Shown here one piece after another: positions 4,145-25,314 of a stretch of 55,270 bases of DNA. The stretch comes from Candidatus Omnitrophota bacterium. GTDB taxonomy: Bacteria; Omnitrophota; Gorgyraeia; 1-14-0-20-64-10. Location of the stretch: the NCBI GenBank assembly GCA_016196465.1, contig JACPXR010000035.1, forward strand, positions 1 to 55,270, written 5' to 3'. Below the pieces are notes generated by a model that was not told the origin of the DNA, did not search any database, and saw nothing but the letters and a program-made list of their open reading frames with translations. Both the position numbers and the translations under genes were made by a program. Each line of letters starts with the position of its first letter. The first letter of the stretch is position 1.

Positions 4145-5676
4145 GTGATCGGGTCGTCATTTTCGATACGACGCTCAGGGACGGGGAGCAGTGCCCCGGG
4201 GCCAGCTTGAACCCCCAGCAGAAGCTGGAGGTGGCCCGGCAGCTCGCCCGCCTGAAGGTGGACGTGATCGAAGCGGGGTTCGCCGTCTCTTCCCCGGGCG
4301 ACTTCGAGGGGGTGAACCGGATCGCCCGGGAGATCCGGGGGCCGGTGATCGCCTCCTTGGCCCGGGCGGTCCCCAAAGACATTCAGGCGGCGGGAGCGGC
4401 CTTGAAGCCGGCGAAGCGCCGGAGGATCCACACCTTCGTCGCCACCTCGGAGATTCACATGAAGTACAAGCTGCGCAAGGCGGAGGATGAGATCGTCCGG
4501 TTGGCGGTGGCGGCGGTGAAGCTGGCCCGCCGGCACACCGACGACGTGGAGTTCTCCGCCGAGGACGCCGCCCGGAGCCGACCCGACTTTCTCTTCCGGG
4601 TTTACGAGGCGGTGATCAACGCCGGCGCCACGACGGTGAACGTCCCGGACACGGTAGGGTGGGCGATCCCCTCGCAGTTTGGCGAGCTGATCCGCTCGAT
4701 CCGGGAGAATGTCCCGAACATCCGCAAGGCCGTCATATCGGTCCACTGCCACAACGACCTGGGGCTCTCCACCGCCAACAGCTTGAGCGCCGTGGCAAAC
4801 GGGGCTCGGCAGGTCGAGTGCACGGTGAACGGCATCGGGGAGCGGGCCGGGAACGCCAGTCTCGAAGAGGTGGTGATGGGGCTGAAGGTCCGGAAGGACC
4901 TCTTTGGGGCCGGGGTCAGCGTGGACACGACGGAGATCTACCGGGCCAGCCGCCTCGTCTCCAAGCTGACCGGGTTCCTCGTTCAGCCGAACAAGGCGAT
5001 CGTCGGAGGAAACGCCTTCGCCCACGAATCGGGGATCCACCAGCACGGCGTCCTCATGCACCGGAAGACCTATGAGATCATGACCCCCCAAGAGGTCGGC
5101 TGGGGGGAGTCGAAGCTGGTGCTGGGGAAACATTCCGGACGGCACGCCTTCGTGGCGAGACTTAAAGTCCTCGGGTTCCGCCTGGAGGAGAAGCGGCTCG
5201 AGGAGGCGTTCGAGCGGTTCAAGGTGCTCGCCGACAAGAAGAAGGAGGTCTTCGACGACGACCTCTCCGCCCTGGTCGAGGATGAGATCTCCGAGGTGCC
5301 CCAGCGCTATTCGCTGGAGTATCTCCATGTGACGAGCGGCACCGGCGTCATCCCCGCGGCCACGGTCCGCCTGAAAACGCCCCAGGGGAAGATCCTTCAG
5401 GGGGCCGCGAGCGGCGACGGGCCGGTGGACGCCTGCTACAACGTGATCGACCGGCTGACCGGCTTCAAGGGGAAGCTCGTCGATTACGTGATCCAGTCGG
5501 TCACCTCCGGGAAGGACGCCCTGGGCGAGGTGACGGTGAAACTCTCCCTGCCTGCCGGCAGGCAGGGCGCCCACGGGCGGGTGGAGCATGGACGGGCCGC
5601 CTCCACCGACATCATCGAGGCCTCTTCGAGGGCCTATTTGAGCGCGATCAACCGTTTGCTCCATAACAGGCGCTGA
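4141..5676 (+). CDS. leuA: 2-isopropylmalate synthase (a citramalate synthase cannot be excluded)
   Basis: ATG 4141 overlaps the ilvC stop (ATGA). N-terminus [18 protein letters not shown] and the [14 protein letters not shown] motif. 511 aa with a LeuA-type C-terminal regulatory domain. Confidence 0.88.
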
Positions 5677-6476
5677 TGGAATTACCCCTTTTAACCCGGG
5701 GGCTCGTCTTTCTCTCGGGGCTCGTGGTCGGCTCCTTTTTGAACGTCTGCATCTGGCGCCTGCCCGCCGGGGAGCAGGTGATCCGGGGCCGTTCCCATTG
5801 CCGGGGGTGCGGGCATCTGATCGCCTGGTACGACAATCTGCCCCTGTTGAGCTTTTTGATTTTGAAGGGAAGGTGCCGCTTCTGCCGGGCGAGGATCTCT
5901 TGGGTTTACCCGGCGGTGGAGTTGGCCACGGGAGCGCTCTTTCTCCTGGTCTTTCAGCGGTTCGGCCTGACCGCTGCGGGGCTGACTTACGCGGCCCTGG
6001 GGGCGGCTCTCATCCTCATCTCCGCCATCGACGCCCGGTGCATGGAGATTCCGGATGAGGTGACTTATCCGGGAATGCAGCTGGGGGTGATCTTGAGCTT
6101 CTTCACTCCCGAGCTCCACGGGGCCTCCAGCCGCTGGGGCGGACTGATCTCCAGTCTGCTCGGGGCCCTCGCCGGGGCCGGGTTTCTCTGGGTGATCGGG
6201 ACCGTCGGCTCTTGGGTCTTCAAGCGGGAGGCGATGGGCGGGGGGGACGTGAAGCTCATGGCGATGGTGGGATCCCTCCTCGGGGCGGGTAAGACCCTTC
6301 TCGTGAATCTCGGGTTTGCCCCCGTCCTCGGTTCGATCGTGGGGCTCGTGTTGAAATACCGCTACGGGAAGGAGCTGATCCCCTACGGGCCGTTTTTGGC
6401 CGCGGGGACGTTGATGGCGGTCTTCTGGGGGGATGGGATCCTCCAGTGGTACCGGAAGATCCTCTTGGGGATCTAG
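5676..6476 (+). CDS. prepilin (type IV leader) peptidase / N-methyltransferase, A24 family
   Basis: Polytopic membrane protein. Two CxxC pairs (HCRGCGH, GRCRFCRA), AIDARCMEIPDE and GGGDVKLMA aspartate motifs. Start overlaps the leuA stop (TGATG). Confidence 0.88.
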   Translation: MELPLLTRGLVFLSGLVVGSFLNVCIWRLPAGEQVIRGRSHCRGCGHLIAWYDNLPLLSFLILKGRCRFCRARISWVYPAVELATGALFLLVFQRFGLTAAGLTYAALGAALILISAIDARCMEIPDEVTYPGMQLGVILSFFTPELHGASSRWGGLISSLLGALAGAGFLWVIGTVGSWVFKREAMGGGDVKLMAMVGSLLGAGKTLLVNLGFAPVLGSIVGLVLKYRYGKELIPYGPFLAAGTLMAVFWGDGILQWYRKILLGI

Positions 6477-14679: not shown

Positions 14680-16639
14680 GGCCACGAGCGAAATCGTCCA
14701 GCGGCTCTCTCCCTCCGCCAGCGCCCGGCTGGGCCGATGGGCGGGGAACGCCGCTTTCTGTCTCTTGGGGCGCCGTCGGAAGGTCGCTCTCAAAAACCTT
14801 CGGGCCGCTTTCGGAAGGGAGTACACCCTCGAACAGCACCAGCAGATTCTCAAGGAAATGTTTCAGAACCTCGGGATGACCTTCATGGAGGTGGCCCGCC
14901 TGCCGCGCTTTGACAGGGAGTATATGAAAGAGTGGATCCAGATCCCCCCGGAAAGCAGGCAACGACTGGAGGCCGCCTTAAGCAAGGGTCACGGGGCCAT
15001 TCTGCTCACCGCCCACTTCGGGAACTGGGAGCTGGGGGGCATCGTCTCGGCCCTGGAGGGCTATCCGATGCTGGTCCTGGCCCGGGAACAGGGCTGGCCC
15101 CGGCTCAATGGGCTCTTGACCCGGTACCGGGAGTCGAAGGGGTGCGAGGTGGTCACGAAAGGATTTCCTCTGCGGCGGCTGATCCGGGGCCTGCAGGAGG
15201 AAGGGAAGGTGGTGGGGATCCTTGCCGACCAGGATGGAGGAAGAAACGGCCTCCTCGCTCCCTTTTTCGGACGGTTGGCCTCGACGGCGCCGGGGGCCGC
15301 GGCCCTCTCCATCAGCACGGGCGCCCCGCTGCTCCCCTCTTTTGTTCTGCGAAAAGAGGGGGCGGCCCACGCGGTTCTTCTGGGGGATCCCCTTCCGATT
15401 CCGGAGTCGGGGACCCTGGAGGAGCGGGTGAGGGCGGGGGTGGAGCTTTATCTGAGGCGGCTCGAGGAGATGGTCCGCCGGGCCCCCAGCCAGTGGCTCT
15501 GGCTGCACCGGCGGTGGAAATCTTCCCCGGAAAGGCGGGCCCTTCTCATGAGCGACGGGAAGACCGGCCACCTCAACCAATCCAGGGCCCTGGTCGAGAA
15601 GATGGAGGAGGCCTGGAAGAGGCGGTGCGGCGAGGACCGCCGGCTGAAGGGAATCCACCGGCCTCTTTTCAAGACGGAGGTGGTGGAGGTGAAGTACAGG
15701 CATCCTCTCGCCCGCTGGGTTCTCGGGTTTGTGGCGGCGGTCTCCGGCGGCGGAGCCCCCGGGGCCGACCGGTGGCTTCGCCTCTGTCTTTCGAGGGATT
15801 CCTACGACAGCTTCCGCTCCGCCTACGCCGATTACTCGATCTCCTGCGGCGCCGGGGCGGCGCCGGTCAACCTCCTCTGGGGCAGGGCGCTGGGGTGCAG
15901 GACCGTTCACCTCAACCGGTCGGTCTGGCCTTCCTGGAAACGGTTCGATCTGGCGGTGGTCCCCGAGCACGACCATCCGCCCCGGGTGCGCCCCCCGAAC
16001 CTTTGGGTGATCCAGGGGGCGTTGGTCTCCCGGCACCGGGCCGAGATCGGCCGGGAGGGGGACTGGCGGAGGAAACTCAATCTGAAAAGCTCCCGGCAGA
16101 TCGGGCTCTTGATCGGAGGCCCGGCGAAGGGGGTCGAGCTGAAGACAGAGCAGATGGAGGAGATGCTGGGAGGGCTCCTCCGGGCGGTTGAAGCGCTGGA
16201 TGGAGAGCTTCTCATCACCACCTCCCGGCGGACGCCCCCCCTGTTGGAGTCCCTTCTTCTCGACCGGCTTCTTCGGCATCCCCGCTGCCGCCTCCTCACG
16301 CTGGCCAACCGGAATGAGGCCGGGGGGCTTGGGTCTGTGGCGGAAGCGGTCCCCTGCATCCTCGGGCTTTCCGAGGCGCTGGTGGTCTCCGGGGACTCCA
16401 TTTCGATGGTTTCGGAAGCGCTGGAGAGCATGAAGCCGGTGGTGGCCTTTCTTCCTCTGGGGACCAACGGCTCCAAGTACCACCGCTTCCTCGGCGGTTT
16501 AAGCTCGCAAGGGGCGCTGAAGCTCGTGGCCCCGGCGGCCGTCGGAGAGGCGGTTTGCTCCGCTCTCCTTGAGAAATCAGAAGGTTCAGAGCCCAAAGGC
16601 CCTGACCCCCTCGTGGAGCGGCTCGTCTCATGGCTTTGA
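14624..16639 (+). CDS. fusion protein: LpxL/HtrB-family lipid A late acyltransferase (N-terminal half) + ELM1/DUF1022-like putative glycosyltransferase (C-terminal half)
   Basis: N-terminal half has KVALKNLRAAFG and LLTAHFGNWELGG (the HX4D-region equivalent). The C-terminal half begins SDGKTGHLNQSRAL, as in ELM1-family proteins. Junction near 15530. The start (14624 or 14633) overlaps the lpxK 3' end. Confidence 0.7.
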   Translation: MSPMKASFYTESILYWLARATSEIVQRLSPSASARLGRWAGNAAFCLLGRRRKVALKNLRAAFGREYTLEQHQQILKEMFQNLGMTFMEVARLPRFDREYMKEWIQIPPESRQRLEAALSKGHGAILLTAHFGNWELGGIVSALEGYPMLVLAREQGWPRLNGLLTRYRESKGCEVVTKGFPLRRLIRGLQEEGKVVGILADQDGGRNGLLAPFFGRLASTAPGAAALSISTGAPLLPSFVLRKEGAAHAVLLGDPLPIPESGTLEERVRAGVELYLRRLEEMVRRAPSQWLWLHRRWKSSPERRALLMSDGKTGHLNQSRALVEKMEEAWKRRCGEDRRLKGIHRPLFKTEVVEVKYRHPLARWVLGFVAAVSGGGAPGADRWLRLCLSRDSYDSFRSAYADYSISCGAGAAPVNLLWGRALGCRTVHLNRSVWPSWKRFDLAVVPEHDHPPRVRPPNLWVIQGALVSRHRAEIGREGDWRRKLNLKSSRQIGLLIGGPAKGVELKTEQMEEMLGGLLRAVEALDGELLITTSRRTPPLLESLLLDRLLRHPRCRLLTLANRNEAGGLGSVAEAVPCILGLSEALVVSGDSISMVSEALESMKPVVAFLPLGTNGSKYHRFLGGLSSQGALKLVAPAAVGEAVCSALLEKSEGSEPKGPDPLVERLVSWL

Positions 16640-22599: not shown

Positions 22600-22626
22600 T
22601 AGTAATTGAGTTTTTGTTAAATAACA

Positions 22627-22655
22627 TTGAAATCAAAAGGGTATCCAGGTAAACT
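22627..22655 (+). promoter_or_regulatory. possible sigma70-like promoter for the 22684 gene (TTGAAA-N17-TAAACT)
   Basis: Hexamers at 22627-22632 and 22650-22655 lie in the only clearly AT-rich tract of this part of the window. Confidence 0.3.
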
Positions 22656-22683
22656 TTTACTACAAGCTACCCTGAAGAGCCCG

Positions 22684-24672
22684 ATGAGGTTAACCCAAGC
22701 GCTCACTCGAACGATAGGGATTTTCCTGTCGCTGGCCATCGCTTCGCCCGGCCCTGCCTACGGATTGCGCCAAGCCGGCCTCGAGGAGAATCCCAAGAGC
22801 CGCGGGGAGCTGAAAAGGGCCTTGACGATTCGCTCAGGATTGGAGGAGAAGGTGGTGGAAGTGAGAAACCTCGCTTTCGGCCAAGAGGTCACGGATGGGT
22901 TCGGGCATTCCGGGCCTGCCGGATTGAAGGTTAATATCCAGGGCAAGACCGTTGAGTTCGGATCGAGGGGTGTCGCCGAGATTCTCTTTCCCGGCAAGCC
23001 CGGCCGGCGGATTTATCTGGCCACCCACCACCAGATCGCCTACTGGATTCTGGCCAGGGCCTATGACCTCAGGTTGATTCCCCTCCGAGCGATCCGGCTT
23101 TTGTTCACCGACTGGCATGCGGATGATGCCATTTCCTACGAGGAGCCGCCTCTGGCTCCTTTGAGTGCGGTGGAAAGGTTTATCGGCGCCGGCAGGACCA
23201 CGACCAGCGTCAATCGGCTGGGCGCGACCCACCGGGCGGTGTACGAGGAAGATTTTGTGGATGCCCTGCTCAAGGCGGGGCTCATCGCCTCCTACGATTG
23301 GTACGGCAACCCGCGGCTTCCTCTCATGACAAAGCAGGACACCCCACAACGCTCCATCTTGGATTCTGCGCAGATCCCCCTTGCGGCAACCAACCTCGGC
23401 AGCATTGATCTGGACGTCGCCGGAGAGGATCTGGAGCATCTGCCGGAACTTTTCCCTCATCTTCTCAACCTCGCCAGAAAAAGCGAGATCAACATGATCT
23501 TCACGAGCCCCGGCTACGTGAAGGACCAGACCAAAGCGAAGTTGTTTGCCGCGGCGCTGGCCAACACGCTCATCGAGGTCAAGCGCTTGGAAGAGGAGGG
23601 GGAGATTGAGCGGCATCTCTCAGGCCGAAAGAGGGTCGAGCTAGTCCAGGCGGAAGGAACCGATCCAAAGGAGTTTGTCGATGAGCTGAACCGCCTCGGC
23701 AACGAAGCGCTGAGGTTTGTCTTATCTCAGATGGCGTTGGAGAAGGTTCTTGCGCCGATGAGACAGAGGCGGCCACGGCTCATCTTCGCTGATCTCGATC
23801 GGACCTCCTCGCCGGATGCCGATGCGCCTGCTGATCCCGAGGTACTGGCGGAAGTTCAAGCGCTTGCCCGAGAGGTCCCCGAGGCAAGGATCGTTCTTTT
23901 GACCGACCGGATGCCGGAGATTGTCCAGGAGCGCTTCGGGCGCTTCATCCCAGCCGATCTCACAGAGCGGGTCTTGGTGGCGCCGGTGGTTGGCGCTCAG
24001 GGGATGGGCTGGGTGGTTCCGCCGGAAGTGGAAGCGGTGATCGACGGCGTGATGGAGGAGGCGAGGCGGCGCGGGATTCGACCCGGGGATCCCGCTCAAG
24101 GGACTGGGAGCGGCAAGGTGCTTTTGCAGATGGACGGCAAAACCTACGGGATTGATGTCGAGTTCAATCTGGGGGAGATTCAAGCAGCCGATTTGGCGCA
24201 GAGCCGGGACAACCGATTGGAACTTGTCGCCTTGGCTCAGCGGAAGTTAGACCAAGCAGGGCTTTCCAGATTCCAAGTCTACTCAGGGGATGCCCGATCC
24301 ATCTCCATCTTTCCCCCCAAGGACGAGGGGGTCCGCTTCTGGCAGAGACGGTTTGGGGCGGCTGATGGCGAGGTCGCCTTCATCGATGACAACGGAAGCA
24401 GGCTCAGCTCCGCCCACTCAGGGCTCGTCGGAGTGGCCTCCCGCGGCGGGCTCTCAATCTGCTGCGGCACGCGCCCCGGCGATTACGAAGAACTGCCGAC
24501 CGACCTTGGAATCGTCATGACAAAAGGGCTCGCCACAGGCCCCAAAGTCGCCGCCATGGCCCTCCGGATGATCCGACAGGCCCACCGCGCCGTCGGCCTG
24601 GAGGAGGGGGAGAAGGCAGAGGCGGTGGGTGTGGGGGTCATCCAGGACCGGGAGGTGGAGAGGTGGCTTTAG
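22684..24672 (+). CDS. secreted GLEE-motif protein A: signal peptide, double-GLEE leader, His/Asp-rich N-terminal module, HAD-like phosphatase module, GLEE + 21-aa tail
   Basis: ATG 22684 gives MRLTQALTRTIGIFLSLAIASPGPAYG (signal peptide). GLEE codons at 22774-22788, 22834-22848 and 24592-24606. HAD motif I FADLDRT and motif IV-like FIDDNGS. The TTG 22627 start in the track adds a non-hydrophobic extension. Confidence 0.75.
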   Translation: MRLTQALTRTIGIFLSLAIASPGPAYGLRQAGLEENPKSRGELKRALTIRSGLEEKVVEVRNLAFGQEVTDGFGHSGPAGLKVNIQGKTVEFGSRGVAEILFPGKPGRRIYLATHHQIAYWILARAYDLRLIPLRAIRLLFTDWHADDAISYEEPPLAPLSAVERFIGAGRTTTSVNRLGATHRAVYEEDFVDALLKAGLIASYDWYGNPRLPLMTKQDTPQRSILDSAQIPLAATNLGSIDLDVAGEDLEHLPELFPHLLNLARKSEINMIFTSPGYVKDQTKAKLFAAALANTLIEVKRLEEEGEIERHLSGRKRVELVQAEGTDPKEFVDELNRLGNEALRFVLSQMALEKVLAPMRQRRPRLIFADLDRTSSPDADAPADPEVLAEVQALAREVPEARIVLLTDRMPEIVQERFGRFIPADLTERVLVAPVVGAQGMGWVVPPEVEAVIDGVMEEARRRGIRPGDPAQGTGSGKVLLQMDGKTYGIDVEFNLGEIQAADLAQSRDNRLELVALAQRKLDQAGLSRFQVYSGDARSISIFPPKDEGVRFWQRRFGAADGEVAFIDDNGSRLSSAHSGLVGVASRGGLSICCGTRPGDYEELPTDLGIVMTKGLATGPKVAAMALRMIRQAHRAVGLEEGEKAEAVGVGVIQDREVERWL

Positions 24673-24712
24673 GAAATTTCTTTGCAGGGCCGGGCGGAAG
24701 ATGCTATATTAG

Positions 24713-24738
24713 TATGTAGCTACATATGTAGCTACATA
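24713..24738. promoter_or_regulatory. perfect 26-bp palindrome (two abutting ATGTAGCTACAT units), probable TA operator overlapping a TATATT -10-like box
   Basis: TATGTAGCTACATATGTAGCTACATA equals its own reverse complement. It lies 16 nt upstream of the antitoxin ATG. TATATT at 24705-24710. Confidence 0.6.
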
Positions 24739-24753
24739 GAAGAGGAGGGGGCG

Positions 24754-25032
24754 ATGGTTCAATTTGTGAATGTTCGCAAGCTGAAGAACCAACTTTCCGA
24801 GGCGATCCGTTGGACGCGCAAGGGGGACGTGGTGGTCACCCGGCGCGGCAAGCCCCAGGCGGTGCTGCATCGGGTGAGCGAAGAAAATCTGGAAGATTAT
24901 CTTCTCGCGCACTCCGCCAAGTTCCAGAAGAGTCTGGAGGCCTCTTATCGGCAGTATCAACGCAAGGGCGGCATGGCCCTCGATTCTTTGATTGTCCAAG
25001 CCGAGCGAGAGCTTGCCCGTCTTCGCCGTTGA
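24754..25032 (+). CDS. Phd/YefM-family type II antitoxin
   Basis: ATG 24754 after GAGGAGGGGG. MVQFVNVRKLKNQLSEAIRWTRKGDVVVTRRGKPQAVL is a typical Phd/YefM N-terminus. Overlaps the downstream toxin gene. Confidence 0.8.
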   Translation: MVQFVNVRKLKNQLSEAIRWTRKGDVVVTRRGKPQAVLHRVSEENLEDYLLAHSAKFQKSLEASYRQYQRKGGMALDSLIVQAERELARLRR

Positions 25033-25279
25033 ATTTTCACCGGCGGCGCAGCGGGATCTCAGACGATTGGATCCCGCGATTCGGTTGCAGTTGCTTCGGG
25101 CAGCCGCAGTTCTGGGGCAAGGCCCCTTTCCATCGGCAGGGAGCAGGATTCAGCCCATGGTCGGGATCGTCCCGCGGCATTTCCGGCTGCGGATTGGAGA
25201 GTATCGATTGATCTACCGGGTTGAAGGAGAGAAGGTTGTCGTGGTCCGCGTGGCCCACCGCCGGGAGGCCTACCGATGA
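25013..25279 (+). CDS. RelE/ParE-family type II toxin
   Basis: ...FAVEFSPAAQRDLRRLD...FRLRIGEYRLIYRVEGEKVVVVRVAHRREAYR is a RelE/ParE signature. TTG 25013 is preferred (purine-rich upstream); TTG 24992 is an alternative. Confidence 0.78.
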   Translation: MPVFAVEFSPAAQRDLRRLDPAIRLQLLRAAAVLGQGPFPSAGSRIQPMVGIVPRHFRLRIGEYRLIYRVEGEKVVVVRVAHRREAYR

Positions 25280-25314
25280 TTGATTTTCCGATGGGGATAC
25301 GATAGAAAGGAACC

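Follow-up and report, generated by a model that had tools for sequence, protein, structure and literature searches.

A 55,270-nucleotide contig of a Candidatus Omnitrophota bacterium (JACPXR010000035.1 of assembly GCA_016196465.1; the window, below) encodes three proteins in which the tetrapeptide Gly-Leu-Glu-Glu (GLEE) recurs, here called GLEE proteins A, B and C. Protein A, the subject of this report, carries the tetrapeptide three times, twice in a leader behind a predicted signal peptide and once close to its C terminus. Between the leader and the last copy are an N-terminal module (N module) that resembles the arginase superfamily and a C-terminal module (C module) that resembles the HAD superfamily. 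Taken together, the evidence leans towards protein A being a Sec-exported, two-enzyme member of a rare modular protein family that bears [A/S/T/V]-G-L-E-E in the leader and at module borders. The gene is intact; its features are collected in Table 1.

Rare relatives and independent modules

Protein A had three matches besides itself when 1.84 billion representative proteins were searched in full with HMMER. One of these, P0004, was rejected as a relative: it is a WD40 protein, and the similarity is a low-complexity artefact. The other two are real relatives. P0002 is a 915-residue fragment from a JGI metagenome, in which residues 397-671 are homologous to residues 82-354 of protein A, the N module, with 26-30% identity; beyond the shared module it contains a class I S-adenosylmethionine (SAM) methyltransferase. 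P0003 is a protein of 2489 residues with a signal peptide, encoded in another groundwater metagenome (L001 72-7541). Its residues 1126-1432 match residues 353-641 of protein A, which span the C module, at 26-28% identity, and both matching segments end at [V/S]-G-L-E-E. Since each relative has only one of the two modules, the N and C modules of protein A are separate evolutionary units that move independently. A segment described as a linker helix (ALRFV..QM) belongs with the N module, as it is common to P0002 (z = 3.75), and not with the HAD module or P0003. A relationship of the N module to the P0003 segments in front of the HAD module was tried and rejected (z<0).

P0003 has GLEE at residues 58, 109, 597 and 1429, and GMEE at residue 2305. 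The HAD module that it has in common with protein A closes a GLEE-bounded unit, residues 603-1428, after which comes a phosphoglucomutase/phosphomannomutase unit; this neighbour suggests a sugar-phosphate theme for the shared module. P0002 is encoded at an AT-richer locus (L002 2-2746), and its SAM methyltransferase faintly resembles CheR. At the end of protein C, too, there is a weak match to a CheR-like methyltransferase (E = 4e-4).

Both modules are rare. Back-translated pattern scans with the two module alignments brought up no additional relatives in 185,579 species genomes or in the JGI metagenome contigs. In a word-indexed homologue search the full protein A found only itself and the N-module alignment found nothing, and there was no match to protein A in PADLOC or PHROGs. 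In the PDB, the sequence of protein A and the profiles of the two modules found nothing beyond marginal, unrelated matches. The view in the original prediction that protein A is without a characterised orthologue is borne out by these searches and by those of Pfam and NCBIfam described below. That prediction also named a result that would speak against it, namely the confident assignment of protein A to a well-characterised periplasmic family in which the GLEE positions are not conserved, and no match of this kind was found.

The GLEE motif

Six-frame translation of the window contains GLEE 14 times, and 12 of these occurrences are within proteins A, B and C. Composition predicts 0.23 occurrences in the three proteins, and the largest number in 2000 shuffles was 4. 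The codons vary from site to site (GGC, GGA or GGG for Gly; CTC, TTG or CTG for Leu; GAG or GAA for Glu), so the motif is conserved as a peptide and not as a DNA repeat. In protein A the plan is AYG/LRQAGLEE, 16 residues, SGLEE (the slash marks the predicted cut), with a terminal AVGLEE, and the same plan is found in B, C and P0003. The terminal AVGLEE (636-641) of protein A is followed by exactly 21 residues, as originally described, and the C terminus of protein B is GLEG with a tail of 21 residues. A, B and C together have 13 GLEE-type sites, and in 9 of them an Arg stands 2 or 3 residues before the Gly; this is so at no such site of P0003. A full-text literature search found no paper on a GLEE motif. 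Use of the GLEE codons as internal Shine-Dalgarno sites for re-initiation was rejected, because a suitably spaced GTG is present only at the second site of A and at one site of C and is not systematic.

We rate GLEE as a candidate mark for recognition or processing, in preference to a plain linker. Two copies come right after the signal peptide, all four residues are strictly conserved at 12 sites despite the varying codons, the terminal copy precedes only 21 residues in A and B, and the copy at the end of the HAD module is retained in P0003 though the flanks have diverged. All this is left unexplained if GLEE is instead a structural linker, caps a helix or was left behind by module shuffling, with no role in processing or sorting, and protein A is a single uncut periplasmic chain, for example a scavenging phosphatase with an accessory domain. 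We regard such a linker as unlikely, while giving it substantial weight. P0002 speaks in its favour, and so against a role for the motif, in that the same N module is there joined to a methyltransferase and neither border has GLEE, SSGLIT being found where protein A has RSGLEE; the tag is thus lineage-specific and dispensable for module fusion. Likewise, no dedicated GLEE-processing enzyme or protease is encoded among the genes of the window, and none adjoins gene A. The existence of periplasmic HAD phosphatases as established enzymes also agrees with an uncut chain.

The window encodes a prepilin peptidase and an M17 aminopeptidase, both in ordinary housekeeping surroundings. The prepilin (type IV leader) peptidase gene, at 5676-6476, is located between leuA and aroC, and nothing ties it to the GLEE proteins. 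Prepilin peptidases cleave after Gly in G/[FLM]xxxE, to which G/LEE has a superficial resemblance.

The N module

Three strings rich in His and Asp, ATHHQIAYW (114-), LLFTDWHADD (139-) and IDLDV (241-), were the basis on which a metal-dependent hydrolase site had been proposed, with a likeness to arginase or UPF0489 folds offered as a guess. All three strings are present as quoted. Members of UPF0489 (PF12640) are peptide arginases, which convert peptidyl-arginine to ornithine and have the motifs EEH(N/H)EAF, DxHxD and LDIDLDYFSC; in the crystal structure of one of them, OspR, the Mn ligands are His12, Asp39, His41, Asp43, Asp165 and Asp167 (PMC10028609; PMC12707348). All six positions of the binuclear Mn ligands of the arginase superfamily are found in protein A, as H116, D143, H145, D147, D242 and D244. 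They are invariant at the aligned columns of P0002, although the two sequences are only 30% identical, and the distance from the first His to DxHxD is 27 residues in protein A, P0002 and OspR alike. The pattern H-x26-D-x-H-x-D ... D-x-D with the spacing of OspR was reached by 0 of 50,000 shuffles of the N module of protein A and by 6 of 50,000 for P0002. Two more UPF0489 motifs, E-x-[WF]-[IV]-x-[PA] and R-[KS]-S ... Y-x(3-4)-Q, are collinear with the N module.

The module consists of a short beta-rich extension, the arginase/UPF0489-like core and a C-terminal helical region. With the peptide arginases OspR (PDB 8brp), BipC, FlmR and OhkR it shares three motifs in the same order, [E/H]-H, D-x-H-x-D and I-D-L-D, in addition to the spacing and the two further motifs just described. 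It differs from them in the beta-rich N-terminal extension and the long C-terminal helical region, both of which are extra, and in an insert between the second and third motifs of 95 residues rather than 122. Peptide arginases are encoded in gene clusters for cytoplasmic peptides that are made by ribosomes and modified after translation (RiPPs), whereas protein A is predicted to be an exported protein of several modules.

Profile-profile similarity to the peptide arginases is weak but non-random, and below any Pfam threshold. A vertebrate UPF0489 profile detects OspR at 7.7e-14, so that the vertebrate UPF0489 proteins and the bacterial peptide arginases are linked families. When the N module was compared by hhalign with this profile together with OspR, P was 4e-4, for a hypothesis that had been fixed before the test. 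Smith-Waterman comparison gave z = 5.1 for protein A with OspR and likewise with FlmR (0/500 and 0/1000 shuffles reached the score). From these similarities and the ligand pattern, the N module is probably a very divergent arginase-superfamily domain of UPF0489 type. The initial guess thereby becomes the best-supported reading of the module, without membership of PF12640 being proven or, from these sequences, demonstrable.

A considerable body of results weighs against this assignment. HMMER found no PF12640 match for the whole of protein A, the isolated N module or P0002 even at E<=10, a hidden Markov model (HMM) of vertebrate UPF0489 sequences gave no signal for the N module, and neither module of protein A has a match in Pfam or NCBIfam at that same threshold. 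In hhalign the thin vertebrate profile gave E = 0.5, with the expected 39 residues aligned without a gap; the probability was 35% for the profile with OspR and 6% (P = 6e-3) after FlmR and OhkR, taken from the supplement of a paper, had been added. Six of eight Smith-Waterman pairs, namely all four with P0002, A with OhkR and A with a primate UPF0489 protein, were not significant. Modelling and fold search, which the original prediction had recommended, succeeded for the C module and not here: the AlphaFold2 model from a two-sequence alignment had a predicted local distance difference test score (pLDDT) of 42 and was unusable, and its Foldseek matches, all at E>0.2 and mutually unrelated, are noise. 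Finally, the acidic residue before the first His is absent, since protein A has T-H-H and P0002 T-H-H-H in place of EEH. In OspR this residue, Glu11, has been proposed to hold the guanidinium group (PMC10028609); as it is His115 in protein A and His in P0002, arginine is a guess as the substrate and may not hold.

The same results suit an alternative in which the N module has a new fold or is a binding domain without catalytic activity, its His and Asp likeness being due to chance or convergence, so that only the HAD module is enzymatic. The missing HMMER matches to PF12640 or arginase, the silent vertebrate HMM, the low hhalign probabilities, the P0002 module that is never significant when taken by itself and the unconverged AlphaFold model are all in keeping with it. 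Six ligands in the right order with the exact spacing of OspR, their invariance between such distant sequences, the alignment of two further collinear motifs and the P value of the prespecified test are hard to reconcile with it, and we consider it unlikely though credible. Readings of the His/Asp motifs as those of a DHH phosphoesterase, a metallophosphoesterase, an HD protein or an amidohydrolase were rejected, because the order of the motifs generally known for these families is different.

The C module

The HAD-like module, proposed at the outset from FADLDRT (368-374) and FIDDNGS (566-572), was confirmed as subclass IIB by a fold search and by the conservation of motifs I-IV in P0003. All four motifs are intact and in order in both proteins, and the cap follows motif II and precedes motif III, which is its place in subclass IIB. 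An AlphaFold2 model of the module from a two-sequence alignment had a mean pLDDT of 51, with residues 449-539 at 83-89. Foldseek comparison of this model with the PDB gave 55 matches at E<=1e-3 (best E 6e-7), and all of the best 50 of the 55 are HAD-type enzymes or HAD-like domains. Among the matches listed are the phosphomannomutases PMM1/2, the atypical alpha-phosphoglucomutase 4bnd, YidA, SupH and other Cof-type phosphatases, sucrose-phosphatase and the IMP nucleotidase ISN1.

Some results count against the assignment. The HAD core, unlike the cap, was modelled at low confidence, and the Foldseek TM-scores were 0.3-0.5. No curated HAD family HMM in Pfam or NCBIfam matched the module, its profile found only the marginal, unrelated PDB entries mentioned above, and a sequence comparison with PMM2 was not significant. 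Because comparison by sequence gives no significant result, the assignment to HAD-IIB rests on fold and motifs; on these grounds the module very probably has this fold, and its catalytic machinery is rated as intact. Compared with the eukaryote-type phosphomannomutases, 4bnd, the Cof/YidA/SupH phosphatases and sucrose-phosphatase, the module has the same order of motifs and the same place for the cap. It differs from these enzymes in a motif IV of the DD type, not GDxxND, in having no match at the level of an HMM, and in being fused behind an arginase-like module in a protein that is predicted to be exported, with GLEE at the end of the module.

Periplasmic HAD phosphatases exist in the form of the class B and class C acid phosphatases. 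Those such as AphA (class B) and e(P4) (class C) are exported, Mg-dependent and form an aspartyl-phosphate, and thus show that HAD enzymes can work outside the cytoplasm. The description of protein A as built from cytoplasmic-type hydrolase modules was therefore too strong for its HAD part. AphA and e(P4) are unlike protein A in that they belong to other cap classes and sequence families, have a single domain and lack GLEE framing.

Signal peptide, leader and export

The N terminus of protein A was found as first described, with the signal peptide MRLTQALTRTIGIFLSLAIASPGPAYG, then LRQAGLEE, exactly 16 residues and SGLEE. By inspection, the features of a Sec substrate of signal peptidase I are all present: a charged n-region (R2 and R9), an h-region (IGIFLSLAIA) within the usual 7-15 residues, and a c-region (SPGPAYG) with small residues at -3 and -1 of the predicted cut, A-Y-G/L-R. 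In a hydropathy profile this h-region is strongly hydrophobic, there is otherwise one weaker segment (430-445) in the HAD core, and no second transmembrane-like segment appears in protein A. All of A, B, C and P0003 have a signal-peptide end of the form P-x-x-[YFW]-[AG] and then a GLEE leader. L-R immediately follows the predicted cut in A and in B (…PSAFA/LR…), P0003 has …PAAWA/A… at this point, and the leaders of A and P0003 are similar with z = 4.2.

Protein A is accordingly predicted to be exported by Sec and cut before L28. Since the window contains genes for Kdo transferase, LpxK and heptosyltransferases, the host cell is diderm, and a Sec signal would place protein A at least in the periplasm. 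That export was judged by inspecting the sequence detracts from this reading and leaves some room for the hydrophobic segment to be an uncleaved signal anchor or to go unused, as might also be thought from the many membrane-anchored architectures in a preprint on long Omnitrophota proteins and from the mostly cytoplasmic occurrence of both module families; this is distinctly improbable, given that an h-region of only about 10 residues followed by a Pro/Gly-rich c-region with small -3/-1 residues is not anchor-like, that the same plan is present at all four complete N termini of GLEE proteins examined, and that the first in-frame ATG after the signal peptide comes only at residue 214.

Proposed working of protein A

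In the scheme that we propose, a 27-residue signal peptide would carry protein A across the inner membrane of the diderm cell. The mature protein would begin with the 29-residue double-GLEE leader and end with the third GLEE and the 21-residue tail. In the N module, H116, D143, H145, D147, D242 and D244 would be the ligands of a binuclear Mn(II) centre, which would activate water for hydrolysis of a guanidino group or a related amidino or amide group. Our best guess for the reaction is conversion of arginine to ornithine and urea on a peptide or protein. In the C module, Asp370 would form the aspartyl-phosphate intermediate with Asp372 as the acid/base, and T407, K546 and D568/D569 would make up the rest of the Mg(II) site. 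With its cap, the active site would then be of the sugar-phosphate phosphatase or phosphomutase type. This chemistry is proposed because the catalytic residues are conserved and the arginase and HAD mechanisms are established.

A more speculative extension, which we think improbable, is that protein A is the pro-effector of a "punctuated polyprotein" system. An enzyme acting after export would recognise or cut at [A/S/T/V]-G-L-E-E and so remove the double-GLEE leader and the 21-residue tail. The peptidyl-arginine hydrolase and sugar-phosphate phosphatase or mutase thus freed would act on a host or prey cell or on the envelope of such a cell, and not in the metabolism of the producer. In a bolder variant, the arginase-like module could itself edit the arginines of the GLEE junctions to ornithine, an idea suggested by the frequent Arg shortly before the Gly at the GLEE-type sites of A, B and C.

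The gene and its surroundings

Table 1. Features of the gene for GLEE protein A (positions in the window; aa, amino acid residues)
Feature	Coordinates	Strand	Basis or remark
Sigma-70-like promoter site, TTGAAA-17-TAAACT	22627..22655	+	Consensus scan, 9/12 matches; AT-rich gap upstream of gene A
Coding sequence of GLEE protein A, 662 aa and stop	22684..24672	+	ATG 22684, stop 24670-24672, no internal stops
Predicted Sec-type signal peptide, aa 1-27	22684..22764	+	Sequence and hydropathy
Leader, aa 28-56: LRQAGLEE, 16 residues, SGLEE	22765..22851	+	GLEE codons 22777-22788, 22837-22848
N module, aa 82-354	22927..23745	+	Homology to P0002 residues 397-671
T114-H115-H116	23023..23031	+	H116 aligns with OspR MnA ligand His12; H115 replaces OspR Glu11
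D143-W-H145-A-D147, DxHxD metal motif	23110..23124	+	Aligns with OspR D39, H41, D43
S240-I-D242-L-D244	23401..23415	+	Aligns with peptide-arginase LDIDLD, OspR D165 and D167
C module, aa 363-637, HAD superfamily subclass IIB (very probable)	23770..24594	+	Homology to P0003 residues 1126-1428
HAD motif I, D370-L-D372-R-T374 (nucleophile Asp, Asp+2)	23791..23805	+	P0003 has D-V-D-G-V-T
HAD motif II, L-L-T407-D	23896..23907	+	End of predicted strand 2
C2B-type cap, about aa 449-539	24028..24300	+	pLDDT 83-89
HAD motif III lysine K546 (ISIFPPKDEG)	24319..24321	+	Conserved in P0003
HAD motif IV, D568-D569 (FIDDNGS)	24385..24390	+	Conserved in P0003
Third GLEE, aa 638-641	24595..24606	+	Positional match to ASGLEE ending the homologous P0003 module
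C-terminal tail of 21 residues, GEKAEAVGVGVIQDREVERWL	24607..24669	+	Sequence

The reading frame of protein A can also be extended upstream to a TTG at 22627. The ATG given in Table 1 is the preferred start, because this TTG falls within the sigma-70-like site and GAAGAG is found 7 nt upstream of the ATG. Upstream of gene A are genes for Kdo transferase, LpxK, glycosyltransferases and two heptosyltransferases and a DUF3108 lipoprotein-like gene; downstream are a Phd/ParE toxin-antitoxin pair, which has a promoter-like site of its own, and after it gltB and the gene for protein B. The third-position GC content of codons (GC3) is 0.74 in A, 0.71 in B and 0.61 in C, compared with 0.80-0.88 in housekeeping neighbours, which fits accessory or fast-evolving genes. 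In one study of groundwater metagenomes, the Logan contigs of 2-4 runs contain the same gene A sequence, with no variants.

Gene A and the toxin-antitoxin pair form a block of lower GC3 (0.67-0.74) at 22600-25314, which is flanked by the cluster of lipopolysaccharide (LPS) core genes (0.80) and gltB (0.87); this suggests an accessory insertion. Between gene A and Phd/ParE, at 24700-24745 and directly after the promoter-like site TTTGCA-18-TATATT at 24681-24710, is a tandem palindromic unit, tATGTAGCTACATATGTAGCTACATag, in which GTAGCTAC is self-complementary. It looks like an antitoxin operator. On the reverse strand, a frame of 501 codons within the LPS gene cluster (14978-16483) had no Pfam match at E<=1e-5 and could be an O-antigen ligase/polymerase-like membrane protein or a spurious frame. 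Other contigs of the groundwater runs (1513 bases in X2, 250 bases in X1) match only 35-base stretches with 5 mismatches, at 24594-24628, the third GLEE site, and 22724-22758, the signal-peptide region. These contigs may be fragments of further genes of the GLEE family from that community.

Significance

Both domains of protein A belong, or probably belong, to known superfamilies. What appears to be undescribed is the pairing of the domains, their location in a protein predicted to be exported, a first metal motif that reads THH and the framing by GLEE. To our knowledge, the UPF0489 family has so far been known from cytoplasmic RiPP maturases and an uncharacterised eukaryotic protein. If our reading is true, the peptide-arginase family would extend to an exported protein of several domains, in which the first motif is changed from EEH to THH.

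Very long Omnitrophota proteins have been described as exported or membrane-associated, with unrelated enzyme modules (West-Roberts et al. 2023, 10.1101/2023.11.21.568195; 10.64898/2026.06.07.730766). Their post-translational cleavage is suspected, one of these two preprints states that the cleavage points are unknown, and neither preprint mentions a GLEE motif. Compared with these proteins, protein A is small, has no transmembrane helices beyond the signal peptide and has no protease domain. If the assignments hold, it is a clean example of the GLEE-framed plan, with one leader, one two-domain cargo and one tail in 662 residues, and would be more tractable than the giant proteins for work on cleavage or sorting at GLEE, on leader-driven export and on the activity of modules outside the cell. 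With GLEE as a defined candidate motif, the cleavage points of very long Omnitrophota proteins become testable, and protein A would be of high interest should GLEE turn out to serve as a code for processing or sorting.

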